From NCBI GenBank assembly GCA_964649415.1, contig CAZYSK010000067.1, positions 191 to 32,342 of the forward strand: DNA of 32,152 nt, given 5' to 3'. This DNA comes from an uncultured Anaerolineales bacterium (lineage in GTDB: Bacteria; Chloroflexota; Anaerolineae; B4-G1). Position numbers and translations under genes: made by a program. The notes under the pieces were generated by a model that was not told the origin of the DNA, made no database searches, and saw nothing but the letters and a program-made list of their open reading frames with translations. Every line of letters starts with the position of its first letter. Positions within the stretch are counted from its first letter, which is position 1. Of this stretch, positions 1,062 to 29,714 are shown one piece after another.

Positions 1062-1066
1062 GAGAA

Positions 1067-2788: not shown

Positions 2789-2825
2789 CGGCACTCCGGC
2801 GGAGACCTGACGGGGCGAACAAAAA

Positions 2826-2976
2826 GCATGGAGCGCCATCGGAATGGCGCCTTCAAATGGAGCATGGAGCGCCATCGGAATGGCGCCTTCAAATGGAGCA
2901 TGGAGCGCCATCGGAATGGCGCCTTCAAATGGAGTATGGAGCGCCATCGGAATGGCGCCTTCAGATAGAGCATGGA
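2826..2976. repeat. Family-1 hairpin repeat: four tandem copies of a 36-bp unit (ATGGAGCGCCATCGGAATGGCGCCTTCAAATGGAGC) containing the perfect palindrome GCGCCATcggaATGGCGC
   Basis: Four directly abutting units fill the intergenic space between the ThrC-REC gene and the hybrid HK gene. A partial copy is also present at 15..32 of the window. Confidence 0.85.
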
Positions 2977-10811: not shown

Positions 10812-13100
10812 TCATCGTGCATCCGGTGACGCTTCTTCCGCGTCCAGCCGCTCCAGGCGCGCGATATCCGCCATCAGCCGCTTCAGCCCGGCCTCGTCGA
10901 AGACCACCGTCACCATCTCGTCGCCGCCGTCGGGCCGGCTCTGGATGACCAATCCATCGCCGAAGGTCGCGTGCCGCACGCGCTGGCCTGCACGGAACTG
11001 CAACTCGCTAGAGGGGCGAGCGCGAACGCGGGAGAAACCGGGGCCTTCCCGAAAACCTTGGGTTCTGCTCCTGGGCGCGGCCACCACGCCCGTTGCGGGC
11101 TTTGATCGTGCGCGCGCGCCTCTACGTCCCCACGAACCACCAATCAGCTCAGGGGGAACGTCCTCCAGGAACCGGCTGGGCACCGAGGGCTCGCTTTCGC
11201 CGTAGCGGGTACGCCGGAAGGCGTAGGTCAAGAAGAGCCGATCCTCGGCACGCGTCAGCCCGACGTACATCAGTCGCCGCTCCTCGGCCATCTGCTCGGG
11301 ATCGTCCAGGGAGCGGCTGTGAGGAAGCAGGCCATCCTCCAGGCCGGTGATGAAAACGACCGGGAATTCCAGTCCCTTGGCGCTATGAAGCGTGAGCAAA
11401 GTCGGTGCATCCGCCTCGTCGCTCAGGTTGTCCACGTCCGAGACGAGCGCGACGTCAGCCAGGAACTCGGTCAACGTCATGTCCTCGTACTCGGCGGCCA
11501 CGTTGCGGAGCTCCAGCACGTTGGCCCAGCGATCCTCGCCTTCCTCGGTGCCATCGCGCAGATAATCGCCGTAGCGGGTGTCCTGCAACACGCGATCTAT
11601 CAACTGCGCCACATCCATGGCATCGCGTGCGGAGATCCAACCTTCCAGCATCTCCAGGAATGACTCCAACACCCGCCGCGCCCGCGCGCCCAGCTTCGGG
11701 CCCTGGCCCGTCGCGTCGACCACGTCCTGGATCACCTCGTAAACCGAAACGCCGCGTGTCCGCGCCGTCTCCTCCAGCGCCGCCACCGTCTTCTGGCCAA
11801 TGCCCCGGGGCGGGACGTTGATCACCCGCGCCATACTCACGCCCTCTGTGGGATTGTGGATCAGCCGTAAGAAGGCGATCAAGTCCTTGATCTCGCGGCG
11901 GGCATAGAACCGGGTCGCCCCGACCAGCTTGTAGGGCAGGCCCGCGCGGATGAAGGCATCCTCCAGTGCACGCGACTGGGCGTTCGTCCGATACATCACC
12001 GCGCAGTCGCCGGGGTGCCCCCCCTCCTGGGCGACCAGTTGGGCGATGGTATTCACCACGAACAAGGCCTCGTCGTCCTGGTCGTAGGCCTCGTGGACGA
12101 CGATCTCGGGGCCACGCCCCCGGCGCGTGAACAGCGACTTGTCCGTCCGATCGGGATTGTGACGGATCACCGCGTGGGCGGCGTCCAGAATCGTCTGCGT
12201 CGAGCGATAATTCTGCTCCAGGAGGATGGTGAGGAGGTCGGGGTAATCGTCCCGCAGGCGGCGGATGTTGCGATAGTCCGCGCCTCGCCAGGCATAGATG
12301 GACTGATCCTCATCGGCGACGCAGAAGAGGTTGTGATAACGGCTCGCAAGCTGCTGCAACAGCGCGTATTGAGCCTGATTGGTGTCCTGAAACTCGTCCA
12401 CCAGGATGTACCGGTAGCGCTCCTGATACTTGGCCAGTACATCCGGGTTCTGCCTGAAGGCCCGCACAGTCACCATCAGCAAGTCATCGAAGTCAAGCCC
12501 GCTGTTGGCCGCCAGCAGGGCCTGGTAGCGTTCGTAGATGCGCTTGACGACCTCACCGTAGTAGGAGCCGGTGGTGTATGCCTCCGGCGTGATCAGCTCG
12601 TTCTTGGCCCGAGAGATGGCCCCATGCACCGCCTGGGGACGATAGCGCTTGTCGTCCAGGTTCAGGTCGCGGATCGCCTGCTTGACCAGGCGACGCTGGT
12701 CATCGGCGTCGAAGATGGCGTAGTCGCGCGGGATACCCGCGGCGTCGGCATCGCGGCGCAAAATACGGGCGCACGTGGCGTGGAACGTGCCCAGCGTGAG
12801 ACTGCGAGCGCGAGAGGGTCCAAGTAACCGCTCCAGCCGCTCTCGCATCTCACGGGCCGCCTTGTTGGTGAAGGTGACCGCCATGATGCGCCAGGGGGCG
12901 ACGTCTAGCTCCAGAACCAGCCAGGCGACGCGGTGTGTGAGCACGCGGGTCTTGCCGCTGCCCGGCCCGGCCAGCACCAGCACCGGGCCGTCGGATGCGG
13001 TGACGGCTTTCTGTTGTTGAGGGTTGAGTCCTTTGAGAGTGTCCACGGCGTCAGATTGTAACACAGGTGCACACAGCGCGCCAGTCTTGCCGTTCGGCAA
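10812..13100 (-). CDS. pcrA: ATP-dependent DNA helicase, PcrA/UvrD family (SF1). The ORF-finder start is TTG, and the true start may lie a few codons downstream.
   Basis: Walker A is AGPGSGKTRVLTHR. Motif II/III is DEFQDTNQAQY. The conserved GLNPQQQKAV N-terminus and a C-terminal Tudor-like extension are characteristic of PcrA/UvrD. Confidence 0.88.
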   Translation of the reverse strand: MPNGKTGALCAPVLQSDAVDTLKGLNPQQQKAVTASDGPVLVLAGPGSGKTRVLTHRVAWLVLELDVAPWRIMAVTFTNKAAREMRERLERLLGPSRARSLTLGTFHATCARILRRDADAAGIPRDYAIFDADDQRRLVKQAIRDLNLDDKRYRPQAVHGAISRAKNELITPEAYTTGSYYGEVVKRIYERYQALLAANSGLDFDDLLMVTVRAFRQNPDVLAKYQERYRYILVDEFQDTNQAQYALLQQLASRYHNLFCVADEDQSIYAWRGADYRNIRRLRDDYPDLLTILLEQNYRSTQTILDAAHAVIRHNPDRTDKSLFTRRGRGPEIVVHEAYDQDDEALFVVNTIAQLVAQEGGHPGDCAVMYRTNAQSRALEDAFIRAGLPYKLVGATRFYARREIKDLIAFLRLIHNPTEGVSMARVINVPPRGIGQKTVAALEETARTRGVSVYEVIQDVVDATGQGPKLGARARRVLESFLEMLEGWISARDAMDVAQLIDRVLQDTRYGDYLRDGTEEGEDRWANVLELRNVAAEYEDMTLTEFLADVALVSDVDNLSDEADAPTLLTLHSAKGLEFPVVFITGLEDGLLPHSRSLDDPEQMAEERRLMYVGLTRAEDRLFLTYAFRRTRYGESEPSVPSRFLEDVPPELIGGSWGRRGARARSKPATGVVAAPRSRTQGFREGPGFSRVRARPSSELQFRAGQRVRHATFGDGLVIQSRPDGGDEMVTVVFDEAGLKRLMADIARLERLDAEEASPDAR

Positions 13101-16554: not shown

Positions 16555-17220
16555 CTACATCAGCATCAGCACGAGGGCCAGTGCCGATACGGCCGGCACG
16601 GTCAAGTTGTCGATGCCCCACGGTGAACATGCCTCGACGAGTACGGCGGCCAGCGCCGTCACGGCCGCGGCTCCCGCAGCAGTGACCGCGCCCAACGATC
16701 CAGGGCCCAGCAGCAGGAGCGGCACGAGCGTCGCGATCCAACTGATGAGGAACAGCACCACAGACCCCTCCAGCGAGCGGGTGCTCCCGGCGACGGTGTA
16801 GCGCCGCTGCCCGATGCGCCGCCCCACCACCGCGGCCAGCGCGTCCCCCCACGTCATGGGCATCAGGCTGGCCACCAGCAGGTCGGGCCTGCCCCACAGC
16901 AGCCAGATCAGGGCCGCGAACGATATCGGGAAATAGACGGTGCCCAACTGGCCCTTCTCCCCGGTCTCCATGGCCTTGAACGTCCCGCGCCAGTAGGACA
17001 AGGCGTTGATAACGACGAAGGCCAGCGGCGGAATGATGGCGAAGGCGCGGCGCTCGAACAGCAGTACCGTCCCGAAGGCCCACATGCCGACGGCGATGTG
17101 GATGAACTTGCGCGTGAAGTCCACGGAATAGCCGCGCCACATGCGCAGCCCCTCGGCGACGCCGATGGCGGCGAAAACGTAGGCGAAGGAGGATAGTAGA
17201 GCGATGGTATCTTGGGGCAT
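16555..17220 (-). CDS. CTP-transferase-1 family membrane protein (CdsA / phytol-kinase / dolichol-kinase-like)
   Basis: It is a polytopic membrane protein. The motifs TRKFIHIAVG, GDALAAVVGRRIG and EGSVVLFLIS match the VTE5/DolK/CdsA family. Its start lies 9 nt after the REC-CHAT stop. Confidence 0.55.
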   Translation of the reverse strand: MPQDTIALLSSFAYVFAAIGVAEGLRMWRGYSVDFTRKFIHIAVGMWAFGTVLLFERRAFAIIPPLAFVVINALSYWRGTFKAMETGEKGQLGTVYFPISFAALIWLLWGRPDLLVASLMPMTWGDALAAVVGRRIGQRRYTVAGSTRSLEGSVVLFLISWIATLVPLLLLGPGSLGAVTAAGAAAVTALAAVLVEACSPWGIDNLTVPAVSALALVLMLM

Positions 17221-17229
17221 CGTTGCACC

Positions 17230-18732
17230 TTACACTTGATGGATGAGGATGGGCGACAGCCACGTGGTATCGTTGCGATCAATGGACAATTCGCACCTTG
17301 CATGCCAAAGCGCAACTTCTGGTCTGCCCTGGTCCAGCAGGGACTTATAGAAGGCCAGGGCCAATCGCCGAGCGCCGTCGTCGGATACAGGCCAGCGATA
17401 GCCCACCACCGAGGGCACACCGGCCTGGGCGACTGCATCGGCCAATCCGAGGAAGTCATCATCGAGCAGAGCAACCTTTCCACCCGACGCTGTGCCGTAG
17501 CAACTGCTCAGATAGACGAGGCGCACCCCCGATTGCCCAAGTAGCAGCCTGACTTCGGTCGCCCGCATAGGCACGATGCCCCCTTGCTTGTCCGCCTCAG
17601 CCCAGAAGTAGAGGCTACTTTCTTCGGGAGAGTCGGCCTCATAGGAACCATGCCCTGCATAATGTACCACGTCGTAGTTCTGTGCCTTCAACTCTGCTCT
17701 GACGCGTTCGTATGTGGCTTGTTCCGTGGCGATGAGCTTCACGTCAACCGGGATACGATCCTGGCCTTTCAAATAACTGGATAGCTCTTGTGCCTCGGCA
17801 TCAGCCCCATCAATCGGAGGCAGAGTCTTCGAAGTCGTGTTCGACGCGATGATCAGCACGCGCAGTTCTTTCGTCAGTGCCAGCACGCGAGGCGAGATCG
17901 CTTCGCGCTTTGGGGTAGCCTCACACACAAACCGGGCAAGCGGATGCTGAAGCACCAGGTATTCCTGAGGGGCATCCGAGTACATGAACTCCATTGGAAG
18001 ACACACATACTCCCTGGGAGTCTCAAATTGCAGCGAGAGCAACTGGCTGCTGGCACGGGCCGTCAGATAGGTCTCTTTGGCCTCGGGTTGCTCACCGAAT
18101 ACGTCACGCCATAGGTCGCGACCGATCTGCTCGACCTGCAAACGCAGGTTGTTCCAGTCTTGCCTGGCAACTTCGGTCCTCCTCGCATATCGCTCGACGT
18201 CTAGCACCAGCGCCCTGCCCGACCGCCGGGAGCAAACGTGATAGCCACGCGATCTTATCGCCAAGTGCTGCCTTGCCACAAGAGACAGGGACAGCCTGGA
18301 TTCATCGCCGAAATTCTTAAGCTGTGGTTCTCTTGGCTCGTCGCATATCCCCGGCCTGTCTCTCGTCTCCGCGATGATCTCCAAGACTTGTTTGACCACA
18401 TCTGGCGTCTTCTCGACGAATTGCTCTACCCCAAGATACCGAATCGCGCGGACGATTTGCTTGGCCCTCACATAGCGCGTTAGCAAGATGACGTGGACCT
18501 TCGGATCCAGAGCGCGGAAAGCCATCGCCAGACTCGAACCACTTTCGTCCTCCTCGCCACCTTCGTGCAGACGTACATCAATGAGCGCAAAATCGAAGGG
18601 CTCCTGTATGACCGCGTCCAGTGCCTGTCCCTCATTGGATGCCACCCGCACGGTATGCCCCTCATCGGAGAGCCGCCCGCGCAATGTATCCCGGAAGTCA
18701 GGCTCATCGTCTACTACCAGTATCTTGTACAT
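17230..18732 (-). CDS. Response regulator with N-terminal REC and C-terminal CHAT (caspase-like) protease domain. The start is MYKIL at 18732 with a GAGGGGG RBS. The ORF extends to 18834.
   Basis: The REC domain reads ILVVDDEPD...LIDVRLHEGGEEDESG...ILLT...K. The CHAT His/Cys dyad context is VVHYAGHG and RLVYLSSCYGT, with the typical ~400-aa CHAT layout. Confidence 0.75.
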   Translation of the reverse strand: MYKILVVDDEPDFRDTLRGRLSDEGHTVRVASNEGQALDAVIQEPFDFALIDVRLHEGGEEDESGSSLAMAFRALDPKVHVILLTRYVRAKQIVRAIRYLGVEQFVEKTPDVVKQVLEIIAETRDRPGICDEPREPQLKNFGDESRLSLSLVARQHLAIRSRGYHVCSRRSGRALVLDVERYARRTEVARQDWNNLRLQVEQIGRDLWRDVFGEQPEAKETYLTARASSQLLSLQFETPREYVCLPMEFMYSDAPQEYLVLQHPLARFVCEATPKREAISPRVLALTKELRVLIIASNTTSKTLPPIDGADAEAQELSSYLKGQDRIPVDVKLIATEQATYERVRAELKAQNYDVVHYAGHGSYEADSPEESSLYFWAEADKQGGIVPMRATEVRLLLGQSGVRLVYLSSCYGTASGGKVALLDDDFLGLADAVAQAGVPSVVGYRWPVSDDGARRLALAFYKSLLDQGRPEVALWHARCELSIDRNDTTWLSPILIHQV

Positions 18733-18797
18733 CGCTACGCCCCCTCGCGCCATCGCCTGCGACTGTGGAAAAGGATCACCGGACAAGCCACTCAGAC

Positions 18798-19688
18798 TCA
18801 CTCGACTGCGTCCCACCTCTCCCGTATGTAGCACATGGCCGCCCTAACATCCAGGTTCCGCGTCGAATTGCCCATACGCACCCAGAACTCGTGAGAGTCA
18901 CCCTTGCCCAAGAAAACCGGCCTTGGGCTTTCGTCAATGGAGACGGCGCAGATGCGCTTGCCATCCATCAACTCGAAACGTGGGTGGATATACAGCACGT
19001 ATTCCGCACCCAAATTGACCTGGACAATATCGGTCAGCAACAGTTGGAATCCGTCGATATCTGACTTGCGCAGGGTCTGCAAGTCTCTTTCAATACCCAG
19101 TATCGTGCCATCGTCAGCGACGCCAAGGAGCAGATGCCCGCCCCCGCAATTCAGCATCCCGGCTATCGCCCTGGCAATCTCCTCCTGCAATCTCTTGTTG
19201 ACTCTGTTCTGCCTGTAGTCCCAACGAATACTGGACTTAAACTCCACCCGGTCATTCTCACCCTGGGCGATCAATTCGACGACATCTGGGGCCGCGCATT
19301 CAACCGCGCGCTTCACATATCCCGGCAATTGACTCACTTCGGATTTCTCCAGGAAGCCAAAGGCTGGCGCAACCCCGTCGTGGTCCGGTTGGAGGGCCTC
19401 ACGCACCATCTTGACGTCCGCGTAGCCGGTCAAGATGATGATAGCCACGCTGGGGTCCTTCTCTCTGATCTCGTGCATGAGCACAAGGCCGTCGCGGTTT
19501 TCTTCGTCAGCCTCGTCCAGGCGGACGTCCAGGACTGCGACGTGAAAACGCTCGGCATCCACCATGTGCAGAGCTTCGGCTCTGCTGGACGCCAAGCGTA
19601 CGTCGTAACCATCGTCTGACAGAAGACCCGACAGCGTCACGCGCACGTCGGGCAGATCATCCACGACAAGAACGCGCCCTCTGTGCAC
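18798..19688 (-). CDS. Response regulator with N-terminal REC and C-terminal AlbA_2 (Schlafen-like) domain. The start is GTG.
   Basis: The REC domain reads VLVVDDLPD...VLDVRLDEADEENRDG...IILTGY...EKS. The C-terminal segment ENDRVEFKSS...AIAGMLNCGGGHLLLGVADDGTILGI...FWVRMGNSTRNL matches the AlbA_2 / Schlafen core. It lies 24 nt downstream of the preceding REC gene. Confidence 0.7.
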   Translation of the reverse strand: MHRGRVLVVDDLPDVRVTLSGLLSDDGYDVRLASSRAEALHMVDAERFHVAVLDVRLDEADEENRDGLVLMHEIREKDPSVAIIILTGYADVKMVREALQPDHDGVAPAFGFLEKSEVSQLPGYVKRAVECAAPDVVELIAQGENDRVEFKSSIRWDYRQNRVNKRLQEEIARAIAGMLNCGGGHLLLGVADDGTILGIERDLQTLRKSDIDGFQLLLTDIVQVNLGAEYVLYIHPRFELMDGKRICAVSIDESPRPVFLGKGDSHEFWVRMGNSTRNLDVRAAMCYIRERWDAVE

Positions 19689-19712: not shown

Positions 19713-20114
19713 CTACCGCGCTAGTACTTCCCCCACAACCCGCACCAGATCCTCAGTTTCTGTCTTGGGGATATAGTTGGCCACAAGTCGCTGGCCCTGT
19801 GCATCCGGTTCCATCGCCCGACGCATTATATCAGATGTACCATAGCCCGTGATCATTACGACTCGGATTGCAGGCCAGCGGTGCCTGATCTCGGCTGCCA
19901 GATCCAGTCCCTCAGTGTTACCTTCGTCCGTCTCGTCCAGTCGCACGTCCAGCAGCGCTAGATCAAAATGACCAGTCCCAAGCAATTCCAGCGCCCTCTC
20001 CTGAGACCCGGCGCACTGGACGTCATATCCTGCGTCCTCCAGCAAGCCACTGAGCGTCGCGCGCCAGTCGGGCAGGTCATCCACTACCAAGACTCTGTTA
20101 GGTCCATCTGTCAT
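19713..20114 (-). CDS. Stand-alone CheY-like response regulator (REC only)
   Basis: The domain reads VLVVDDLPD...LLDVRLDETDEGNTEGL...VMITGY...IPKT. It shares the DVRL(D/H)E-acidic insertion with the REC domains of the CHAT and AlbA_2 proteins. It overlaps the upstream gene by 4 nt. Confidence 0.8.
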   Translation of the reverse strand: MTDGPNRVLVVDDLPDWRATLSGLLEDAGYDVQCAGSQERALELLGTGHFDLALLDVRLDETDEGNTEGLDLAAEIRHRWPAIRVVMITGYGTSDIMRRAMEPDAQGQRLVANYIPKTETEDLVRVVGEVLAR

Positions 20115-20503
20115 TGTCCCCCTCCTTCGCGGTTATCATGACGTCGATGCCCTATCGCGGCGGACGAGGGAATAATACCCTCGACGTGCTCAACCAGGTC
20201 CCGGTCACCGAAGGATTTGGCGAAATAGCGCTTGGCCCCCAGCCGGTAAGCCGCCAGGGCCTCCTCAGTCGTGGGCTGGACGGTCGTCACCACGACCCGC
20301 TTATCGGCGTATTTCTCGGCGATGATCTCAAGCACGTCCAGGCGGCGGGAACTCGCGATGACCAGATCGAACTGGTTCGCCTCAAGCTCGGTGATGGCAG
20401 TCTCCTTGTCAGGCGCGACGACTATCTCGAACTGGTTCAAGTCGTTCTTGGCGAACTCTATCCAGCAAGGTTCATCGTCGATGATCAGAATGCGCGTTCT
20501 CAT
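20111..20503 (-). CDS. Atypical (pseudo-)receiver domain protein that apparently lacks the phospho-acceptor Asp
   Basis: The REC fold is recognisable: ILIIDDEP in beta1, VVVTTV carrying the Thr, and YFAKSF carrying the Lys. Beta3 reads FDLVIASS, so the acceptor Asp position holds Ala. It overlaps both the HK stop and the next REC gene by 4 nt. Confidence 0.65.
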   Translation of the reverse strand: MRTRILIIDDEPCWIEFAKNDLNQFEIVVAPDKETAITELEANQFDLVIASSRRLDVLEIIAEKYADKRVVVTTVQPTTEEALAAYRLGAKRYFAKSFGDRDLVEHVEGIIPSSAAIGHRRHDNREGGGQ

Positions 20504-23500
20504 CGCGACACCTCCCCTCCTGCCCCTGGCGCTGGGATATGAACCAGCATGGTCGTTCCCGTGGAGTCGCTGCGCTCTATTTTAACATCACCGCCCAGAC
20601 TTTGCAACATCAGGCTGTTCAACCACAACCCCAGCCCGCTCCCCCCTCTCGGCTCCTTGGAAGGGACGGGCTTGGCGAACAGGCGTTGCTGAACTCTGGA
20701 TGGAATGCCTGGCCCCGTATCCCGAACGCGCACGCAGATGCTGCCGTCCGTCAGACGGCTGGCAACAGTCAACCGACCGCCGTCCTCCATCGCACGATAG
20801 GCATTGTCAGCCAGGTTGCGAAAGACCTCGGAGACCTGCCCAATGGGGGCCTGGATCTGCGGAATGGAGTCGTCCAGGTCCAGAGTAACCGCTATCGCCG
20901 AACGAACCGGGTCGGCTTGCCATCGCTCTCTCGTCCTGCCCACCACGTCATTCAGCACGGCATTGACGTCCACCGCCTGAACCTCGATCTCCCGCAGCGG
21001 CTCCTGGATGCGCGCGATGATCTCCGAGGTATAGCGGGCGTTGCGCTCGATGATGTCGAGGATCTCGGCGATGGTTTCGTCCGCGACGTCCACGCGCTTG
21101 CGCAGGCGCGTCACGTTGGGGACGATGATGTTGAAGGTGTTGTTGATGCGGTGCCGCAGCGCCGCCATTGCGGTGCCCAGCGTCGCCAGTTGCTTGGCGG
21201 CGATGGCCTCGCCGCGCGCTTGCTCATACAGCCGGGCGTTGTCCAGGGCGATGGCAGCCTGGCTGGCCATGGAGAGTAGGACTTGCAGGTCCTGCTCATC
21301 GTAGGCATGTTCTCGCTCCCAATCCTGCATAGCGATCACGCCCAGCGCCCTCTCGCCTATGACCATAGGAACACCTAGCCAAGAACCTGACAAACGTCCA
21401 ATGAACTCTTGGTGTCCGGGTTGCCCATACCACGCCTCGGCCTCCGCCGACGTGCGATGCAAGATGGGTTCCTTGGTGAGGATGATCTCTTCGGTCTTGC
21501 CCCGCCTCTCCATATCCGCCTGGCGGGATTCGTAGTGTACCCGTTCTCCCTGCTCCGTCGCCAGGCCGAAGTGGATCGTGTTCGCTTCCCCATCGTACAA
21601 GGCGATGTACATGTCCTGCGCGCCCGTCAGCCTCTTCGCCTGTTCGTAGATCAGTTCCAGGATCTCGTCTTGCTTCAGGCGAATCCCCGACGTCAATGTT
21701 CTCCCCACCTCGTTGAGCGCCGCCAAGGCCTCCACGCGACGCGCCAGCTTGCGGTTGACGTCGTAGTAGAGCTCTGCGTTGTCCAGCGCGATGGCGGCCT
21801 GGCTGGCCATGGAGGAGAAGACCTGCAAGTCTCGATCATCGTAGGCATGCTCTCGCTCCCAATCCCACAGGGCGAGCACGCCCAGTACTTTCTCACCCAC
21901 CACCATCGGAACACCCAGCCAAGAGAGTGGAACTCGTCCAATGAACTCTTGGTGTCCCGGCTGCCCATACCAGGCTTCGGACTCCGCCAGGGTGCGATGC
22001 AAGATGGGTTCCCTGGTAAAGATGACCTCTTCGGTCTTGCCTCGCGTCTCCATATCCGCCGGGCGGGATTCGTATTGCACCCGTTCGCCATGCTCCGTCG
22101 CCAGGCCGAAGTGGATCTCCCCCTTTTCCTCATCGTATAAGGCGATGTACATATCCTGTGCGCCAGTCAGCCTCTTCGTCTGTTCGTAGATCAACTCCAG
22201 GATCTCGTCCTGCTTCAGGCGAATGCCGGACGTCAGTGTCTGCCCAACCCCATTAAGCACCTGCATAGCATCGCTAAACGCCTGCATAGCCCCATAGGCA
22301 CGTGCGCTCTCAATGGCCACCGCGGCTGCCCCGGCAAGCGCCTCAACCAGGCGCACGTGATCCTCTGCGAATGCTCCAGCCTCCGTGCTCTCCAGGTCCA
22401 GGATCCCAATCACCCGGTCACCATAACGCAAGGGTGCCGCCAGTTCAGACTGCACCTCGGCGTACCATTCCTGGTAATACGGATCGTCCTGGACATCGCG
22501 GCAGACGTAGGTTTCTCCCGTCGCAACCACGTGCGCGCTGATGCTGTTCCCAGAGAGAGGCAGACGGGACGTGCTGCGCGTCGGTTCCTTCTCCACCGCG
22601 TTCATGGCCCCGAAGCGCAGCTCAGTGCCGTGCTCGTCCAGCAACCAGACGCCGGTGTAGGTGGCCGGGGTAAGCCGGGCCGCGTATTCCGCGATGCGCT
22701 TCAGCAAGCTTTCCAGCGGCGCCTTTCCAATGAGGGCGTATATCTCCTGGAGGACTCGAATATCGTCCACACGTTCCTGGAGCCTGGCCCGGGTCTCCTC
22801 GTACAGCTCGGTGGTGCGGAATGCCACGGCCGCTTGCGCCGCCAGGGCCTCTGCCAGGTGCTGGTCGGCCTCGCTGAAGGCGTTCAGCCGGCTGCTTTCG
22901 GCATTGAGCACGCCGACCAGCCTATCGCCCGCCAGCATCGGAACGTCCAACTCCGACCGGGTGGCCTCCACGTGACACTTGTACCGGGGATCCTGCGACA
23001 CATCCGTGACGCGCACCGGCTCGCGCGTCTGGGCTGCGGTGCCGATCAATCCCTCACCCAGATCGATGCTCCTGTCGGGAGACTTGCCCATCGCGTACCT
23101 GAATTCCAGGCTTCCGGTTCCCGGATCGAACACGCTGATGGACCCAAACTCGCAATTCAGGAGTTCTAGGGACCGCTCCAACGTCCGCTGCAGCAATTTG
23201 TCTCTGTCCAGCACGGAGGTGATGTCACGTGCGATATCTTGAAGCGTCTCGCGTTGCTGGAATAGCTGAGCGTTGCGAATGGCGACCGCCGCCTGGTTGG
23301 CGAACAACTGGATCAGTTCCTGCTGTTCCGCCGGGAACCCTTGTGGTGTGCGGTAGTTGACGAACAAGATACCCACCGCCTCGTCGCCGACCAGCAACGG
23401 AATCGCGGCCGTGGAGGCGATCTGCTCCCTGAAGATGAAGCGCCGCTCCGGCATGCCCTCTCGGGCGATTTTGAAGGGGGCCGAAAGAAGCGGTTCATGC

Positions 23501-25281
23501 TGCGCGTCCGCAGCGAAGAGGGGGCGACTCAACGTAAGGACCTGCATCGCCACGTCGTCAGGCAGGATTTTCTTGGACGGCTTGACTTCCACCAGCATTC
23601 TTCCTCCAGAGACGTGATCAGCGACGCGATCCCGTCTGCCTGGACTGTAGCGATACAGCTCAACCAGATCAGCGCCTAACACACCCCTGGCCTGTTGTGC
23701 AATCTGCTGCAGCAGATCCTCAAGACTTTCCCCCGTCACCTCGACGGTGCTCAGACGCTGCCCCACCTTGTTCAGCGCTTCTAGCGCCTGGATCCGCCTC
23801 TGGATCTGCTCATACACGCGGGCGTTGTGGATCGCCATGGCCGCCTGGTTGGCAAGCAGTTCGATGACCCTCCGTTGATCAGGTGGAAACTCCTGGCGGG
23901 TCCGGTAGTTGACGAACATGACACCTACGGTCTCGCCAGCGGCCTTGAGCGGCACGGAAGCCGAAGACAGGACCCCCTCGCGCACGACGAAGCGCCGGTC
24001 CGGGCGCTCAGGACGCTCGACGGTGAACGAGCCGCTGAGCAAGCGATCAGCCTGGGCATCGCGCGTATAAAGCGGCTCGCCGCGCTTGACAACTTCTACC
24101 GCGATGTCGTCCCCGAAGATGTGCTCCTTGACGACATCGGGGACCCGCCGCTCCCCTTCCAGGATCGGCGGGAGGATGTACCGCTCCTCCCTTTCGACGT
24201 ACTGATACACGTCAACCAGGTCGGCACCCAGCACATCCCTGGCGCTCCGCGCCACGTGCTGCAATACCCTTGGCAATCCTCTCGCCGACACCTCGGCCGA
24301 TAGCAGTTCCTCCCCGATCCGATGCAACCTCTCCAGGGCCGCCGACCGGCTGGTCTCCTGCTCGATCAGCCTGGCGTTGCGCAATGCGGCCGCCGCCTGA
24401 CCTGCCAGTGTCTCCAGGAGCACCTGGTCCCGTTCGTCAAAGGCCGCCAGGCCGTCCTTGTCGGCCGAGATCACCCCGACAACCTCGTCGCCCAAGGTCT
24501 TGATGGGCACCACGAGCATTGAGCGTTCAGAGGCCTGTGAAGACCAGCCACGGACAAACCGCGGGTCATGCACCGCGTCCATGACGAGCGCCGGCTCCCC
24601 ATTCTGGGCTACCCAACCGGCCAATCCCTCCCCAATGGCAAAGCTCCTCTGCTCCACGCCCTCCGCGGACCGCGCCGCCATTTTGAGCACATCGGCGCTC
24701 TCATCCATCCGGAATATGCTGACGTGCTGGCAATCCAACACGCGCGCCGCAGACTGTGTGATATGCTCGAGCAGCCTGGGCAGTTTCAGGTCGGAGTTGA
24801 TCCAGAGGCTCACTTCGTTCAGGACCGCCAGATCCCGTATCCATCGCTGCGCGACAGCTACCTGCGCGGCCAGACCCTGGGCCAGAGCCTGCTGAGAATC
24901 GCTGAAGTCTCTAGCCTCGTACGCATAGACGTCCATGACTCCCACGACCGTGTTTTTCACCCGTAACGGCACTACCATGGCCGACTCAAGCCCCACGGCG
25001 GATGCCTCTTCCTTGAACGCCCAGCGGGCGTCCGAGGCGATGTCTTTGACTACAATCGGGCGCCCCGTCTTGAACACCTCCGACCCGACGCTGATTTCGT
25101 CCAAAGGCAGGGCCGCCGTGCGCATATAGTCACCCGGCAGGCCCTCGGATGCAACAAGGCGCAGAGCTTGCTTGACCTCATCGAGGAGCCAGATGCCGAC
25201 CGGCAACTCCAGGATCGAGCCGATTGTACCTACCAACGGTTGAAGAAACCGCTTTTCGCCAGGCCCTGTAGAGGCAGACAT
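20500..25281 (-). CDS. Soluble multi-GAF sensor histidine kinase (about 8-9 GAF domains, HisKA and HATPase_c), 1593 aa
   Basis: It has no TM helices. GAF-like units with inter-domain ALxNARLYEQ linkers recur along the protein. The C-terminal H-box is AALRHRINNTFNII. HATPase_c reads RNLADNAYRAMEDGGRLTV...VRDTGPGIP...GGSGLGLWL. A strong GGGGGGAG RBS precedes the ATG. Confidence 0.85.
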   Translation of the reverse strand: MSASTGPGEKRFLQPLVGTIGSILELPVGIWLLDEVKQALRLVASEGLPGDYMRTAALPLDEISVGSEVFKTGRPIVVKDIASDARWAFKEEASAVGLESAMVVPLRVKNTVVGVMDVYAYEARDFSDSQQALAQGLAAQVAVAQRWIRDLAVLNEVSLWINSDLKLPRLLEHITQSAARVLDCQHVSIFRMDESADVLKMAARSAEGVEQRSFAIGEGLAGWVAQNGEPALVMDAVHDPRFVRGWSSQASERSMLVVPIKTLGDEVVGVISADKDGLAAFDERDQVLLETLAGQAAAALRNARLIEQETSRSAALERLHRIGEELLSAEVSARGLPRVLQHVARSARDVLGADLVDVYQYVEREERYILPPILEGERRVPDVVKEHIFGDDIAVEVVKRGEPLYTRDAQADRLLSGSFTVERPERPDRRFVVREGVLSSASVPLKAAGETVGVMFVNYRTRQEFPPDQRRVIELLANQAAMAIHNARVYEQIQRRIQALEALNKVGQRLSTVEVTGESLEDLLQQIAQQARGVLGADLVELYRYSPGRRDRVADHVSGGRMLVEVKPSKKILPDDVAMQVLTLSRPLFAADAQHEPLLSAPFKIAREGMPERRFIFREQIASTAAIPLLVGDEAVGILFVNYRTPQGFPAEQQELIQLFANQAAVAIRNAQLFQQRETLQDIARDITSVLDRDKLLQRTLERSLELLNCEFGSISVFDPGTGSLEFRYAMGKSPDRSIDLGEGLIGTAAQTREPVRVTDVSQDPRYKCHVEATRSELDVPMLAGDRLVGVLNAESSRLNAFSEADQHLAEALAAQAAVAFRTTELYEETRARLQERVDDIRVLQEIYALIGKAPLESLLKRIAEYAARLTPATYTGVWLLDEHGTELRFGAMNAVEKEPTRSTSRLPLSGNSISAHVVATGETYVCRDVQDDPYYQEWYAEVQSELAAPLRYGDRVIGILDLESTEAGAFAEDHVRLVEALAGAAAVAIESARAYGAMQAFSDAMQVLNGVGQTLTSGIRLKQDEILELIYEQTKRLTGAQDMYIALYDEEKGEIHFGLATEHGERVQYESRPADMETRGKTEEVIFTREPILHRTLAESEAWYGQPGHQEFIGRVPLSWLGVPMVVGEKVLGVLALWDWEREHAYDDRDLQVFSSMASQAAIALDNAELYYDVNRKLARRVEALAALNEVGRTLTSGIRLKQDEILELIYEQAKRLTGAQDMYIALYDGEANTIHFGLATEQGERVHYESRQADMERRGKTEEIILTKEPILHRTSAEAEAWYGQPGHQEFIGRLSGSWLGVPMVIGERALGVIAMQDWEREHAYDEQDLQVLLSMASQAAIALDNARLYEQARGEAIAAKQLATLGTAMAALRHRINNTFNIIVPNVTRLRKRVDVADETIAEILDIIERNARYTSEIIARIQEPLREIEVQAVDVNAVLNDVVGRTRERWQADPVRSAIAVTLDLDDSIPQIQAPIGQVSEVFRNLADNAYRAMEDGGRLTVASRLTDGSICVRVRDTGPGIPSRVQQRLFAKPVPSKEPRGGSGLGLWLNSLMLQSLGGDVKIERSDSTGTTMLVHIPAPGAGGEVSR
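21236..22315. repeat. Intragenic tandem duplication: two ~540-bp (180-codon) GAF-domain units with high nucleotide identity inside the multi-GAF HK gene
   Basis: Unit 1 starts with GCGTTGTCCAGGGCGATGGC at 21236 and unit 2 with GCGTTGTCCAGCGCGATGGC at 21776, a period of 540. The encoded peptides LTSGIRLKQDEILELIYEQ(T/A)KRLTGAQDMYIALYD...GQPGHQEFIGR... are near-identical. Confidence 0.85.
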
Positions 25282-25486: not shown

Positions 25487-26827
25487 TCAATTGCGCCGCG
25501 CTTGCCTCCAGGCATCCAATTCAGCCTGGTATTCCGCTTCTGCAAACGCCAACCCCTTTTCCCGTAGCATCATAGCTGTGAGAACGTGAGGCAGGCCCTT
25601 TCGCTTCTCCAGGAACAGGATTTGAGAACCAGTGAGCGTATGCCCACCATTATCACTCAGGAATCGGTCAAGTTGGCGTCGCCCGCGCACCACGGTTCTC
25701 ATGAAACGCTGGGACTCACCCAAGAAATAGGTCATCAAGCGCTTCTCGTCCTCCGGCGTCGCCCGCAGGGAGCGATGAACCGTCCGGGAAATACAGCCCA
25801 TCACTCCCGGCAGGAATTCCCCGGACTCGATGCCGAGGACAATTTGCCGCGTCACGATGCCCCGTATCAGTAGCTTGACGATTCTCTCCCGGCCGTTCTT
25901 GCCCGGGGGAGGAGCCCCGTCCGCGACCAGGGTATACAGTGCCTTGGAATAGTCCGCAATCACGTGCTCGCTGGCACGGACCAGTGATTCCGGCATGTGA
26001 GAGGCACGCACGAAACCATGGATCGTGTCCACAAGGGGCCGGTAGGCATCCGTCTCAAACACCGACGCAGCGCCCTGCGAAATCATGGCCACGCGCTCGG
26101 TGCCGATGACCGTCTCAGCGAAGGGCTCCGCCATCTGACGCAGAGACCTGCTCTGGGGATCGAGTTCGCGGGAGATGAAGAGGGAATTGGAGAACTCGAC
26201 AAAGCGTCCGCACTTGCAGCCCGGCCTGCAAGCCGGCCCGCAGGCCTTTTCGGCACCCAGGTCATAGAACAACTCCGTGTTCGGCCCTGCCTTGCGGGGG
26301 GTCTCCATACCGTCAATCCCGCCGCCTTGCACCCAGTAGTTGTCATCCGGTCCCAGGCCAATGACGTGATCCCCGGGCACCCCTACCTCGATCCAGGCTC
26401 GACGTGTGACCCCGTCCCCCGGCAGATGCTCGCCCAAGACCGCCCCGCCCTCAAAATAGGAGACCCAGATGCGGCTCTGATCTATGCCGAGAACAGACGT
26501 GGCCAGTGTCCACATACGCCGAATGGTTTCGGCTTTCCCGTTTGGACCAAAGACAAATGCACCGGGCATTTCGAACAAGCTCAGGTGCGTGCCGTCAGTT
26601 CCGACCTTGTCGAGATCGAAGTGGCGAAAACACTCCTGAACGAGGACGAATTGGTCGCCGGGTCTTTCGTCCACCCGGGCCAGGGAGGTCTCTATCTGAA
26701 CTAGGCCGGCACTCATCACGTAAGACATGGGAATAGATGGGTGAAGCATAGGGGCGCGGGGCAGCGGGTGAAAGCCAAGTCCTTCGTAGTAACCTACAAA
26801 GCGCCGACGGATTGCAGAAGCGTTCAT
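25487..26827 (-). CDS. Truncated, divergent alanyl-tRNA-synthetase-like protein (class II catalytic core plus tRNA-recognition domain only; no editing or C-Ala domains), 446 aa from the ATG at 26827
   Basis: Alignment to AlaRS is recognisable. N-terminal IRRRFVGYYEGLGFHPLP corresponds to IRQ.FLDFF..KGH. QECFRHFDLDKVG..THLSLFEMPGAFVFG corresponds to QRCVRAGGKHNDLENVG..HHTFFEMLGNFSFG. AGPNTELFYDLG corresponds to CGPCTEIFYD. RFVEFSNSLFI corresponds to RYIEIWNLVFMQF. LTGSQILFLEKRKGLPHVLT corresponds to the tRNA-recognition DAFKLYDTYGFPLELT. The AGGKHND ATP-binding segment is shortened. The upstream in-frame ATG at 26881 lies upstream of the predicted promoter. Confidence 0.65.
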   Translation of the reverse strand: MNASAIRRRFVGYYEGLGFHPLPRAPMLHPSIPMSYVMSAGLVQIETSLARVDERPGDQFVLVQECFRHFDLDKVGTDGTHLSLFEMPGAFVFGPNGKAETIRRMWTLATSVLGIDQSRIWVSYFEGGAVLGEHLPGDGVTRRAWIEVGVPGDHVIGLGPDDNYWVQGGGIDGMETPRKAGPNTELFYDLGAEKACGPACRPGCKCGRFVEFSNSLFISRELDPQSRSLRQMAEPFAETVIGTERVAMISQGAASVFETDAYRPLVDTIHGFVRASHMPESLVRASEHVIADYSKALYTLVADGAPPPGKNGRERIVKLLIRGIVTRQIVLGIESGEFLPGVMGCISRTVHRSLRATPEDEKRLMTYFLGESQRFMRTVVRGRRQLDRFLSDNGGHTLTGSQILFLEKRKGLPHVLTAMMLREKGLAFAEAEYQAELDAWRQARRN

Positions 26828-26996: not shown

Positions 26997-28037
26997 CTAT
27001 GCCGGCTTCAGAAGTGCGCTCACGATACCGATATCCTGCCACGTGACCGTTTCCTCCTCAGGCACGCCACCGATCACAATTGGGGCAACGGGGGGAAACT
27101 GGATCTTTCCCGTCCCCGGATCACGGACAAACCTGCCATACTCCCACTCTTTCTGATCGACGTTCCATACCACCGCGTGCCCCGTCGCCGGTGGGACAGC
27201 ACCTCGCGCCCAGGCCGCCAGGACGTAGTCCCCCTCGTTGCTGTGTGGTCCAGCCCACCGATCTCGTGGGACGCGGACTGCAAAGCTGCGAGCATCCCAC
27301 GGGAGCCACAGGTTGGTGCCAAACGGCATGCCGTCTTCCGGGTGATACAAACGGTATCTCCGCTCATCGATATCGATCTCCGAGGGGATCAAGCAGCCTC
27401 TCGGCTCCGCACGCAGGAGCCCATAGCCGTTCCCTGTGACCACGGGGATATGCACGGCTGCTGCGCCATCGACCAGCGAAAGGTCATCCGCCAGACACCG
27501 GCACAGGGCGTTGATCCAACTGAGTGCGTGCTGGCACTTGTCTATCTGCTGACTGCATTCTTGTGTTCGCGATGGGTCTCTGAAGCGATTATCCTCCCAA
27601 TACTTGATCGCTTCGCCAAAGGCCTTGATCGCACGCTGGTAATCGACCAGCGCCTTGGTCCTGGATCCTAGCGCACAGTGGAGCAAGCCCCGCAGGTACA
27701 CGACGACAGCTTCGATATGGCGCTTGTTCTGGTAGCCAGGCAGTAAGCCAAGCGCTTTGGCAGCCTCTTGACAACAGTCCAGCGCCGGTCCCCATCGATC
27801 AGTCTCTCGATACAGGTCACCCATCCAGATACAAAGGACGCTCTCACTTGCAGAATGATGACAGGCTCGCGCGAACGCGTGGGCCTCTTCAATGCATCGA
27901 ATAGCCCTATTCACGTCGCCCAGGCACCAGTACTCTGAGCATTTCATCGTGGCAGCGGAGACTACAGATGGCAGCCCATTCTCGCACACCAGTGCTCTAG
28001 GCGCCAGGTCTGGGGGCAATCCCGTGATCACAGGCAT
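26997..28037 (-). CDS. Hypothetical protein with an N-terminal Cys-rich TPR-like helical domain and a C-terminal LexA/S24-peptidase-like beta domain that lacks the catalytic Ser and Lys
   Basis: The N-terminal ~190 aa are helical with TPR-like A/L/Y periodicity. The C-terminal HIPVVTGNGYGLL...FAVRVPRDRWAG..GDYVLAAW...GHAVVWNVDQKEWEYGRF...VTWQDIGIVSALL aligns to LexA segments LPLVGRVAAGEPLL, LLRVSGMSMKDIGIMDGDLLAV, GQVVVARIDDEVTVKRL and GLAVGV, with Ser replaced by Arg and Lys by Gly. A GGAG RBS is 8 nt upstream. Confidence 0.45.
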   Translation of the reverse strand: MPVITGLPPDLAPRALVCENGLPSVVSAATMKCSEYWCLGDVNRAIRCIEEAHAFARACHHSASESVLCIWMGDLYRETDRWGPALDCCQEAAKALGLLPGYQNKRHIEAVVVYLRGLLHCALGSRTKALVDYQRAIKAFGEAIKYWEDNRFRDPSRTQECSQQIDKCQHALSWINALCRCLADDLSLVDGAAAVHIPVVTGNGYGLLRAEPRGCLIPSEIDIDERRYRLYHPEDGMPFGTNLWLPWDARSFAVRVPRDRWAGPHSNEGDYVLAAWARGAVPPATGHAVVWNVDQKEWEYGRFVRDPGTGKIQFPPVAPIVIGGVPEEETVTWQDIGIVSALLKPA

Positions 28038-28265
28038 GGTTACACTCCAGTGGCTCTATGCCGGTCTGCCAGAACACCACCAATCACCGAATAGTCCTTG
28101 ATCTCGCAAGCTCTTTCAGACTACACTGCAGAAGCATCTGCATACCGCAGCATGGCCGCGTAGCGGAGTAACTCAGATGCGCCGGTTGAGGCAGCAAGTT
28201 GATCGTGTCGCCTCCAGCGATCCAGGATCTCGGAGAGCGCCATCATCCTGCGCTGGTGGCAACTC

Positions 28266-29714
28266 TCATGCCCCTCGTATCTCTGGCAGCAGACGTCCAA
28301 GCTCGGAGCCAGCATCATCCGTGCCCGGTAGCCCATCGCCAACCAAACTATGCGTATTCGCCAGCAGTTGCTCCAATTGGCTCAGCATCCGCAGCGTCTC
28401 GGGCGGCAAGAACATACGCTTATGCGGATCGTAGGCCATCCAGCGCAAGGTCTCAGTGAAACGCATGGCCATCAGGTAGGGATGTAGTTCTTCTTCACTG
28501 CTGACAAGTGGCCGGATCGTCTCAATAAGCGTCAGCACCATCTCTGCTTGTGCCTGCACCCGCGCAGCATCCAGACGCGCTATCTCCGCCTCCCCCTCTG
28601 CCTGGTCCTCTACTGCCCTCCGTCTCCAATCGGCCTGCCAGGCTTCGACCCACTGGGCATAGATTTTCTCATCCTTTACGTCAATCTCACCCAGATCAAC
28701 GTTGAGGATCCGGGCCCCCTTGTCATTGCCCACCGAGAGTTTCTCGCGCAAGCGCTTTTCAAGACGTTCCCGGATCTCCTCACGGGGATTCCCCCGGCCT
28801 GGCCAGGGCGGCTGCATCAGCCAATCGAGACGGTAGTCAGCCAAGACCATCCGCAGGATCCCCTCAACCTCGCCAATCATCACGCGCCCCGTCCATTTCC
28901 TGGTCTGTTCCGGGTGATCCGGCTCGTGGATACGGACCCATGTGCTTGTGGCTGCGTTGAAGACCGCCTCATCCGTGTGCGCCAGCGACCTCGCCGGCAC
29001 CTCGCCCTGTTGGCCAGCGTCCCGGTCGTCAATCTTGAAAGTGATGTCAGCCTGGCAGGAAACAGGGATTCCCTCCTTCGTCATCGCCGTAACCGCAAGT
29101 GGCCAGTGCTGTTGTCGCAGGTCAATGACCTCCCAGACCCGCTCGTAGCGCTCAAGGAAGCAAAAAGCGGGGCCCAAGACCCGGCTCAGTCTTCCACCTC
29201 TCTCCAGAACCGCCGCGCTGTCACCGTGAACCACCACAAACCCTGGACCGCCGATGCGGTCACAAGTCGTGCCCGCCCCAAGCGTGATATGCCCTTCTTC
29301 CACGATCAGCAGCGGCTTGAGCGCATCCCCTGGCATGCCGAACATGCTCCGATGAGCGACACCTTGGGCCTCCTCCAGATCCTCCGTGTCGTAGAGGTCG
29401 CGGACAAAACGCGAGGCCAGGCGTGAGATAGCTATCAAAGCTATCAGCAATGGAACGGAACTGAAGAAGCTCCTGACAAGAAAGATGAAGCCGTAGCGGA
29501 TGCAGTCCTTCACCAGTCTCAGAAGACTCCCCACGTAGGACAGATCAAACGGGGCATGGAGAAACTCGATGGCGCATCCAATGAACACCACTAATAGGAT
29601 TGGCCCATGTACCGCAAACATGCGCCAGCGATGCTGACGCTTCAACCTCAGGCGCGTCGACCGCCCGCGTCCGGACAGGGCCCACCTAAGCAGATCTTCA
29701 GGCAGTGAGATCAT
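28266..29714 (-). CDS. SPFH/band-7 (stomatin/flotillin-like) domain membrane protein, 482 aa, with an N-terminal TM region
   Basis: The N-terminal hydrophobic helices are ILLVVFIGCAIEF and VPLLIALIAI. The SPFH core reads LLIVEEGHITLGAG...GPGFVVVHGDSAAV...EVIDLRQQ...VTAMTKEGIPVSCQADITFKID. A coiled-coil Ala/Glu-rich tail follows (AEGEAEIARLDAARVQAQAEM). Its ATG overlaps the upstream gene's TGA (ATGA). Confidence 0.7.
   Translation of the reverse strand: MISLPEDLLRWALSGRGRSTRLRLKRQHRWRMFAVHGPILLVVFIGCAIEFLHAPFDLSYVGSLLRLVKDCIRYGFIFLVRSFFSSVPLLIALIAISRLASRFVRDLYDTEDLEEAQGVAHRSMFGMPGDALKPLLIVEEGHITLGAGTTCDRIGGPGFVVVHGDSAAVLERGGRLSRVLGPAFCFLERYERVWEVIDLRQQHWPLAVTAMTKEGIPVSCQADITFKIDDRDAGQQGEVPARSLAHTDEAVFNAATSTWVRIHEPDHPEQTRKWTGRVMIGEVEGILRMVLADYRLDWLMQPPWPGRGNPREEIRERLEKRLREKLSVGNDKGARILNVDLGEIDVKDEKIYAQWVEAWQADWRRRAVEDQAEGEAEIARLDAARVQAQAEMVLTLIETIRPLVSSEEELHPYLMAMRFTETLRWMAYDPHKRMFLPPETLRMLSQLEQLLANTHSLVGDGLPGTDDAGSELGRLLPEIRGA

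Follow-up and report, generated by a model that had tools for sequence, protein, structure and literature searches.

A receiver-CHAT fusion at the end of a conserved, kinase-containing operon in Chloroflexota

The REC-CHAT response regulator

This work concerns a response regulator encoded on a 32,152-nucleotide stretch of DNA from an uncultured Anaerolineales bacterium (Chloroflexota; contig CAZYSK010000067.1 of assembly GCA_964649415.1), referred to here in its entirety as the window. The protein, REC-CHAT, joins an N-terminal receiver (REC) domain to a C-terminal caspase-like CHAT module, and its gene is the last of a five-gene operon on the minus strand, in which the genes are closely spaced or overlapping. 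The coding sequence occupies 17230..18732 (-), from the ATG at 18732 to the TAA at 17230-17232, as judged from the open reading frame (ORF), Pfam matches, and public gene calls; its product comprises 500 amino acids (aa) with the N terminus MYKILVVDDEPDF. Both domains score far above their Pfam cut-offs and beyond chance: Response_reg (PF00072) at aa 4-109 with 52.9 bits (cut-off, 30.2) and CHAT (PF12770) at aa 245-485 with 121.2 bits (cut-off, 24). The fusion had been proposed in an earlier note made from the sequence of this DNA (the original prediction); it is real, and that note read it correctly apart from the size of a loop insertion and the description of the ribosome-binding site as "perfect."

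The start codon deserves comment, as an ORF finder had placed it at GTG 18834 and the original prediction moved it to ATG 18732. The latter is the correct start, based on four lines of evidence: an identical 500-aa product is already annotated on 8 public metagenome contigs; 58 homologs (∼485 to 506 aa) align from the Met at 18732, with the consensus MxxILVVDD; a start at GTG 18834 would create a 37-nt overlap with the upstream gene (stop at 18798); and a Shine-Dalgarno-like GAGGGGG (18740..18746, minus strand) lies 7 nt 5' of the ATG. Only GAGG of this motif fits the canonical core, so "perfect" was an overstatement, although the motif itself is present. G-rich motifs of the same type precede the starts of the other four genes of the operon. 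Neither GTG 18834 nor the in-frame ATG 18753 has a comparable motif or the support of any homolog, and both were rejected.

The receiver domain (aa 1-125; 18358..18732, minus strand) carries the full set of residues expected for phosphoryl transfer. The acidic pocket (D8 and D9), the acceptor D52 (codon 18577-18579), T85, and K108 align with D12, D13, D57, T87, and K109 of CheY; D52 does not vary among 59 homologs, and D8 and K108 hardly vary. An AlphaFold2 (AF2) model built from a 59-sequence alignment (predicted local distance difference test [pLDDT], 88; predicted template modeling score [pTM], 0.84) loses confidence only at aa 127-139, in the interdomain linker, and at aa 413-422, in the loop that follows the catalytic Cys. 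The N-terminal domain adopts the (beta-alpha)5 fold of receivers and, in the structural comparison, matched the phosphorylated receiver of NtrC1 with a score of 18.6. The flexible linker that follows (∼aa 126-143; 18304..18357, minus strand) has pLDDT values of <50 for aa 127-139, and an EAD7 adaptor domain is inserted between REC and CHAT in four orthologs (P0027, P0034, P0035, and P0065).

The loop between beta-strand 3 and helix 3, immediately after Asp52, had been described as bearing a 17-aa acidic insertion. We judged its length against CheY, against the three canonical receivers of the window, and against hidden Markov model (HMM) alignments to solved response regulators. By these alignments, the loop (DVRLHEGGEEDESG; aa 53-65) has 5 extra residues relative to CheY, the other receivers of the window, and the structures 3rqi and 3a0r, and it is merely 3 residues longer than that of NtrX. 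The loop is acidic (VRLHEGGEEDESG), and an insertion is present where it had been placed, but its size is 5 aa; a length of 17 aa is rejected, the remaining residues after Asp52 being normal loop and the beginning of helix 3.

The CHAT module (aa 144-500; 17233..18303, minus strand) consists of a small beta/helical N-terminal part followed by the catalytic domain. Both motifs named in the original prediction are encoded by this gene: HYAGHG at aa 357-362, which contributes His361 (codon 17650-17652), and LVYLSSCYGT at aa 405-414, which contributes Cys411 (codon 17500-17502). In the AF2 model, H361 and G362 follow the buried beta-strand 355-360 and C411 follows the buried strand 405-409, which is the topology of the caspase-hemoglobinase fold shared by CHAT and clan CD proteases. 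His361, Cys411, their flanking Gly residues, and the hydrophobic strands are invariant in the 59 homologs (47 to 70% identity to the query). These two observations place His and Cys in the canonical caspase/CHAT positions, as had been claimed.

Detecting relatives of known structure depended on the query used. With the CHAT half as a single sequence, a search of the Protein Data Bank (PDB) gave only chance-level matches to caspase-4 (E value, ∼1), and a profile of the full-length protein was dominated by receiver matches; SAVED-CHAT (8tl0) was reached only with a profile made from 14 sequences of the CHAT half, which aligned HYAGHG and LSSC with HFIGHG and LNAC. The Pfam families Peptidase_C14 (caspase) and Peptidase_C25 (gingipain) gave subthreshold matches only (18 and 16 bits). 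In the structural comparison, the module scored highest against Craspase TPR-CHAT/Csx29 (22.3 and 21.8), followed by separases (18.8 to 19.9), CFAP46 (19.2 to 19.7), gingipains K and R (18.3 and 18.1), SAVED-CHAT (17.4), and DdvA (16.9). SAVED-CHAT and Craspase TPR-CHAT/Csx29 (7y9x and 7y83) are the closest characterized proteases. Separases and gingipains, to which REC-CHAT shows no family membership at the sequence level, are regulated by securin or by a pro-domain and serve different biology. The original prediction had staked its case on whether a structure prediction would show a caspase-like fold; the model does show one, and an active protease is the parsimonious reading.

The operon and its relatives

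The first gene of the operon (20500..25281, minus strand) encodes a soluble histidine kinase of 1,593 aa with 8 GAF domains, an H-box, and an HATPase_c domain (Pfam). The H-box reads LRH(1377)RINN, with the His codon at 21151-21153, and aa 1362-1584 align to the AtoS/ZraS kinase cores of NCBIfam. No convincing transmembrane segment was found in the kinase; there is one borderline hydropathy window near the N terminus. Two small receivers follow. REC1 (130 aa; 20111..20503, minus strand; Pfam and alignment), whose start codon overlaps the kinase stop by 4 nt, has Ser in place of the acceptor Asp. The Asp is missing in 12 of 12 orthologs as well (Ser in 11 and Asn in 1), but the DD pocket, Thr, and Lys persist; judged by these residues, REC1 is a conserved pseudo-receiver. 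REC2 (133 aa; 19713..20114, minus strand; Pfam) is a stand-alone receiver with an acidic loop insertion and an intact acceptor Asp, which is kept in 13 of 13 orthologs (LD[VMI]RLDE[TS]D). The fourth gene (18798..19688, minus strand; Pfam) encodes a second effector-bearing response regulator of 296 aa, in which a receiver is joined to an SLFN_AlbA_2 domain, an architecture found in at least 200 homolog clusters, many of them from contigs that match REC-CHAT contigs in length. Neither PADLOC nor NCBIfam provided a specific family for any protein of the operon.

The AlbA_2 half of the fourth protein (aa ∼135-296) matches the cores of human SLFN12, SLFN5, and SLFN14, with a best E value of 1e-4, and keeps the invariant ExxxxEFK (E144 and E149). 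In the HMMER alignment, a Gly lies opposite the Asp of the SLFN12 "NTDGG" segment, and a Schlafen-type RNase activity is therefore uncertain.

The 5-residue acidic loop insertion is common to REC2, REC-AlbA_2, and REC-CHAT and is kept in their orthologs, the pattern among REC2 orthologs being LD[VMI]RLDE[TS]DE.N..G; REC-CHAT proteins of other phyla lack it. Because these three receivers have the insertion in common next to the acceptor Asp, it is consistent with their being served by one cognate kinase, and it may represent a specificity feature for that shared partner.

The order kinase-REC1-REC2-REC-X-REC-CHAT, where REC-X denotes the adjoining receiver-effector protein, recurs with close or overlapping spacing in the window and in 12 further Chloroflexota loci (L004, L006, L008, L010, L012, L013, L014, L016, L020, L021, L025, and L090), bearing in mind that the L020 contig stops before the kinase and that REC1 was not detected in L025. 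The REC-CHAT proteins of these 12 loci are 44 to 69% identical to the query. REC-X is an AlbA_2 protein in 7 loci and a protein of ∼530 aa with TCAD9 and an APH-like kinase in 6. Variant orders also occur (L015 is permuted, and L017 lacks REC-X), and wherever a Chloroflexota locus has enough flanking sequence, the operon includes the kinase.

Several loci hold additional copies. In L010 (11513-13814), L016 (11602-13875), and L011 (1585-3778), the first REC-CHAT is directly followed by a second module consisting of a minimal histidine kinase (252 to 264 aa) and another REC-CHAT, the receiver of which resembles REC2. L024 (9686-11488), from the same metagenome-assembled genome (MAG) as L018, encodes a paralogous REC-CHAT of 600 aa with an N-terminal helical, adaptor-like extension (NLRNIRTLLTEGFTDEELRRLCYDV...). 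Since this paralog is preceded by a 2,268-aa hybrid kinase, one genome has two kinase-linked REC-CHAT systems.

A small gene for a Trypco1 protein (114 to 118 aa) directly follows REC-CHAT in L004/L018 (11508-11852) and L025 (11639-11995). In L027, a deltaproteobacterial MAG, Trypco1 (11512-11832, minus strand) lies immediately downstream of REC-CHAT on the opposite strand, so that the association spans two Chloroflexota lineages and one deltaproteobacterial MAG. Trypco1 has been described as a partner of trypsin-like peptidases; at these loci, it accompanies a caspase-like rather than a trypsin-like peptidase.

Outside Chloroflexota, Acidobacteriota, Deltaproteobacteria, Bacteroidota, and Geobacteraceae have full-length REC-CHAT proteins with 29 to 35% identity, and an Altiarchaeota MAG has a partial copy (24% identity) that is truncated where its contig stops. 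All five lineages have the gene for a large histidine kinase directly upstream, its end only a few bases from the start of REC-CHAT, so that the two form a two-gene unit. Kinase and REC-CHAT thus constitute a recurrent two-component pair, and this recurrent pairing strongly supports phospho-control on genomic grounds. When 1.84 billion representatives were scanned exhaustively with HMMER, 196 clusters were retrieved at an E value of ≤1e-30, of which roughly sixty are full-length REC-CHAT. The remaining close relatives of the CHAT module (35 to 45% identity over aa ∼170-499) carry N-terminal nSTAND1/2 NTPases, HD-CE, or GAF instead of a receiver. In addition, some REC-CHAT orthologs or paralogs carry bDLD1 (a death-like domain), EAD7 in the linker, or an N-terminal TIR domain. 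These domains, Trypco1 included, were defined in conflict and apoptosis-like systems of multicellular bacteria (Kaur et al. 2020 and 2021, PMC7159879 and PMC8195603).

Proposed mechanism, known systems, and alternative roles

We propose that REC-CHAT is a kinase-gated, active caspase-like (CHAT, clan CD) cysteine protease that serves as the output of a response regulator, a reading to which we assign a probability of about 0.7. The proposal draws on the domain composition, the intact catalytic and phospho-acceptor residues, the fold, the conservation of the operon, and the recurrent kinase pairing, all of which were observed here. In outline, the soluble 8-GAF kinase would sense an intracellular ligand or state and autophosphorylate, probably on His1377. 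The phosphoryl group would then move to Asp52 of REC-CHAT and, in parallel, to REC-AlbA_2 and REC2; the genomic linkage of the kinase agrees with transfer to D52. Control by the N-terminal receiver, as the original prediction had it, is supported by the intact phospho-acceptor set and by the presence of a histidine kinase in the operon, which together suggest that the control is exerted through phosphorylation. Phosphorylation of the receiver might turn the protease on either through dimerization that pairs two CHAT domains or through release of an inhibitory contact between REC and CHAT, after which the His361/Cys411 dyad would cut one or a few target proteins. REC2 would most likely buffer phosphate as a sink and so set a threshold, a role proposed for DtcB of the Detocs system described below, and the pseudo-receiver REC1 would most likely modulate the kinase.

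Control of a C-terminal enzyme or adaptor by an N-terminal receiver is familiar from the methylesterase CheB, the diguanylate cyclases PleD and WspR, and RssB, where it operates by relief of inhibition or by dimerization. What differs here is the output, a clan CD cysteine protease. Conversely, SAVED-CHAT and Craspase (CRISPR type III) share with REC-CHAT a CHAT protease switched by an N-terminal sensor module; their switch, however, is a SAVED domain that binds cyclic oligoadenylate or an RNA-guided gRAMP complex, whereas that of REC-CHAT would be a phospho-receiver fed by a histidine kinase.

The closest characterized logic to that of the window operon is that of Detocs, which consists of the kinase DtcA, the receiver-only "buffer" DtcB, and the receiver-effector DtcC (Rousset et al. 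2023, doi 10.1101/2023.01.24.525353). This operon of histidine kinase, receiver-only protein, and receiver-effector acts by abortive infection and is a precedent for the present proposal; DtcB is a proposed phosphate buffer, and mutation of its Asp makes Detocs toxic (doi 10.1101/2023.01.24.525353). In both systems, an enzymatic effector replaces the DNA-binding output of a response regulator, an extra stand-alone receiver is present, and the effector domain is swappable. The gene set of Detocs is matched by the kinase, REC2, and the two receiver-effectors of the window, a resemblance of architecture only. The sequences, sensor, and effector differ: the kinase sensor is an array of 8 GAF domains rather than TPR, and the effectors are CHAT and a second response regulator with AlbA_2 or TCAD9 rather than a PNP ATP nucleosidase, CHAT not being among the effectors listed in the preprint (doi 10.1101/2023.01.24.525353). 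The window operon also has an additional conserved pseudo-receiver and lacks a defense island context. In a PADLOC scan, no model named for Detocs matched, the presence of such a model in the library not having been established.

A second comparison is with the NTP-dependent conflict systems of Kaur et al., whose effectors include caspases or trypsins. Shared elements include the CHAT subfamily on nSTAND1/2; EAD7, bDLD1, and TIR in orthologs or paralogs of REC-CHAT; and TCAD9 and Trypco1 in sister operons. The core of those systems, in their ternary vWA-MoxR-VMAP and iSTAND forms, is a MoxR or STAND NTPase with vWA, and none was found among the window ORFs scanned against Pfam. Their EAD or death-like adaptors are likewise lacking from the REC-CHAT of the window, although orthologs and paralogs have them. 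Moreover, the receivers of those systems are described as kinase independent, with no histidine kinases among the effectors (PMC7159879 and PMC8195603), whereas here the kinase is a conserved upstream component. The window operon resembles both Detocs and the systems of Kaur et al. in the way it would work but is not a member of either.

What the protease might be for is a separate matter. The relatives of its CHAT subfamily suggest a regulated decision of the cell death or defense type in the (typically filamentous) Chloroflexota. Judged by domain content, the pointers in this direction would be the swappable REC-X, the EAD7, TIR, and bDLD1 adaptors, the STAND-linked CHAT relatives, and the Trypco1 neighbors. 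A death or defense function of the operon is nonetheless the most speculative part of the proposal, and we consider it doubtful. In its fullest form, which we offer tentatively, a phosphorelay-gated "caspase" pathway, in which the cytoplasmic multi-GAF kinase acts by way of REC2 as thresholding receiver and REC1 as pseudo-receiver, would convert a signal of infection or damage into simultaneous activation of the protease and of a Schlafen-like or kinase-like effector, leading to suicide or growth arrest in Chloroflexota filaments. If true, this would be a two-component version of the apoptosome or inflammasome and a new defensive class of two-component system with a protease output.

Several features of the locus weigh against such a role. 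The neighbors of the operon are housekeeping genes (UvrC, UvrD/PcrA, AlaRS-like, and SPFH) with no defense island; PADLOC returned no defense model for the window beyond weak CHAT/REC similarity; the window copy has no EAD, death-like, or TIR adaptor; and a search of the window found no Trypco1 gene. The GC content is unremarkable, and the GC profile is uninformative on horizontal transfer. The locus is syntenic across genomes with only 44 to 70% protein identity. Conserved synteny and ordinary GC speak for a core function passed on vertically rather than for a mobile immune module.

Some of these features also favor an alternative in which the phospho-switch is retained but serves ordinary physiology or development, through regulatory proteolysis rather than suicide or immunity. 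Precedents exist, as the CHAT protease HetF acts in cell division and heterocyst differentiation in Nostoc and separase acts in the cell cycle. We regard this alternative as credible, with the odds somewhat against it. Beyond the housekeeping neighborhood, the lack of a PADLOC system, and the unremarkable GC, it accords with synteny beside the AlaRS-like gene, with vertical-looking inheritance across Anaerolineae, and with the usual function of GAF kinases as metabolite sensors. It sits less easily with the exchange of the partner effector between the unrelated AlbA_2 and TCAD9-kinase, the gain of EAD7, bDLD1, or TIR adaptors by orthologs and paralogs, and the presence of the nearest CHAT relatives on STAND NTPases, features of a kind described for conflict and apoptosis-like systems (PMC7159879 and PMC8195603).

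It is also possible, though not likely, that REC-CHAT is itself a processing step, in which the phosphorylated form cuts a specific partner and thereby frees or activates the real effector, after the manner of the cascade from SAVED-CHAT to PCaspase or the cleavage of Csx30 by Craspase. Candidate partners might be the linker of REC-AlbA_2 or REC-TCAD9, Trypco1, or a protein tagged with EAD7 or bDLD1. REC-CHAT is the constant element of the operon and the adjoining REC-X the variable one, Trypco1 lies beside REC-CHAT in L004, L025, and L027, the EAD7 and bDLD1 insertions imply partner recruitment, and Csx29 and SAVED-CHAT, its closest relatives in structure, are proteases that cut at specific sites; all of this would fit. 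Yet REC-X has an intact receiver of its own, which suggests that the kinase activates it directly and independently; no gene for an obvious partner accompanies the two-gene units of kinase and REC-CHAT in other phyla; and no cleavage site could be identified.

Two further alternatives would dispense with a premise of the kinase-gated protease. In the first, the receiver would be a kinase-independent switch for a nucleotide or small molecule, as proposed in MoxR-vWA/iSTAND systems, with the linkage to the kinase incidental. Kaur et al. do report conflict-system receivers without kinases and predict such switching, but the operon kinase is present in every Chloroflexota locus with enough flank and lies directly upstream in five other lineages, and all phospho-acceptor residues are conserved, making this explanation very unlikely. 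In the second, CHAT would be a noncatalytic scaffold or binding module, like that of the anti-sigma factor DdvA or of CFAP46, which is extremely improbable given that His361 and Cys411, with their flanking Gly residues and strands, are invariant in 59 homologs at 47 to 70% identity and align with the His and Cys motifs of SAVED-CHAT 8tl0.

The pairing of REC with CHAT is already catalogued in databases, under the names "CHAT domain-containing protein" or "CheY-like chemotaxis protein." In the literature we found no paper on the REC-CHAT architecture or on the operon, part of the older literature lying outside the search; nor did the searchable literature yield a characterized response regulator with a clan CD cysteine protease as its output, and a 2018 census of archaeal response regulators mentions no protease outputs. 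Caspase-like proteases of bacteria, among them Craspase, SAVED-CHAT, and gasdermin-activating proteases, are increasingly recognized as executioners or signal relays of immunity. To our knowledge, every case that has been studied is switched by a nucleotide or RNA sensor; in REC-CHAT, the switch would be His-Asp phosphotransfer, the commonest currency of bacterial signaling. The kinase-gated protease proposed here would thus extend the Detocs principle, in which two-component systems trigger effectors, to proteases and to another phylum. Interest lies mainly in the conserved multireceiver operon and in the prospect of a caspase-like protease triggered by phosphorylation, which would make REC-CHAT a tractable enzyme for studying CHAT activation, one that BeF3-, acetyl phosphate, or a phosphomimetic might trigger chemically. 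The operon, with its kinase, its pseudo-receiver, its putative sink REC2, and two response regulators that bear effectors, would likewise offer a defined genetic system for studying how a single kinase divides phosphate between effectors acting in parallel. Should the role prove developmental, REC-CHAT would still be, as far as we found, the first caspase-output response regulator to be given a function.

Neighboring genes

An Rfam scan of the whole window returned nothing, and no CRISPR genes were found in the window. Immediately after REC-CHAT, starting 10 nt past its stop, lies a gene for a multipass membrane protein of 221 aa (16555-17220, minus strand). It has no match in Pfam, NCBIfam, or PADLOC; by eye, the pattern RKxxH...GDxxAxxxGxxxG...EGS is reminiscent of polyprenol/phytol kinases. 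As its position after REC-CHAT is kept only in the closest relative, L012, it was rejected as a component of the system.

On the other side of the operon, directly upstream of the kinase, a gene at 25487-26827 (minus strand) encodes a 446-aa protein that comprises only the catalytic domain of AlaRS (tRNA-synt_2c), with 196 bits against the alaS model (cut-off, 457). It occupies the same position in at least 9 other Chloroflexota loci, and the distances to the kinase start that were measured are 16 to 206 nt. The gene might encode a split or paralogous AlaRS that synteny has preserved, or it could have a functional link to the operon.

Upstream of the AlaRS-like gene, 26997-31714 (minus strand) encodes a TPR protein and, after it, two large proteins of the SPFH/Band_7 type, of 482 and 667 aa. 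The genes for the TPR protein and the 482-aa Band_7 protein, the latter cut by the locus end, also occur on contigs with the identical operon. At the opposite end of the window, a signaling cluster on the plus strand (114-4447) encodes a tandem-receiver protein, a PALP (pyridoxal phosphate-dependent) enzyme with a receiver at its C terminus, and a hybrid kinase of receiver-HisKA-HATPase architecture; the fusion of PALP to a receiver is unusual.

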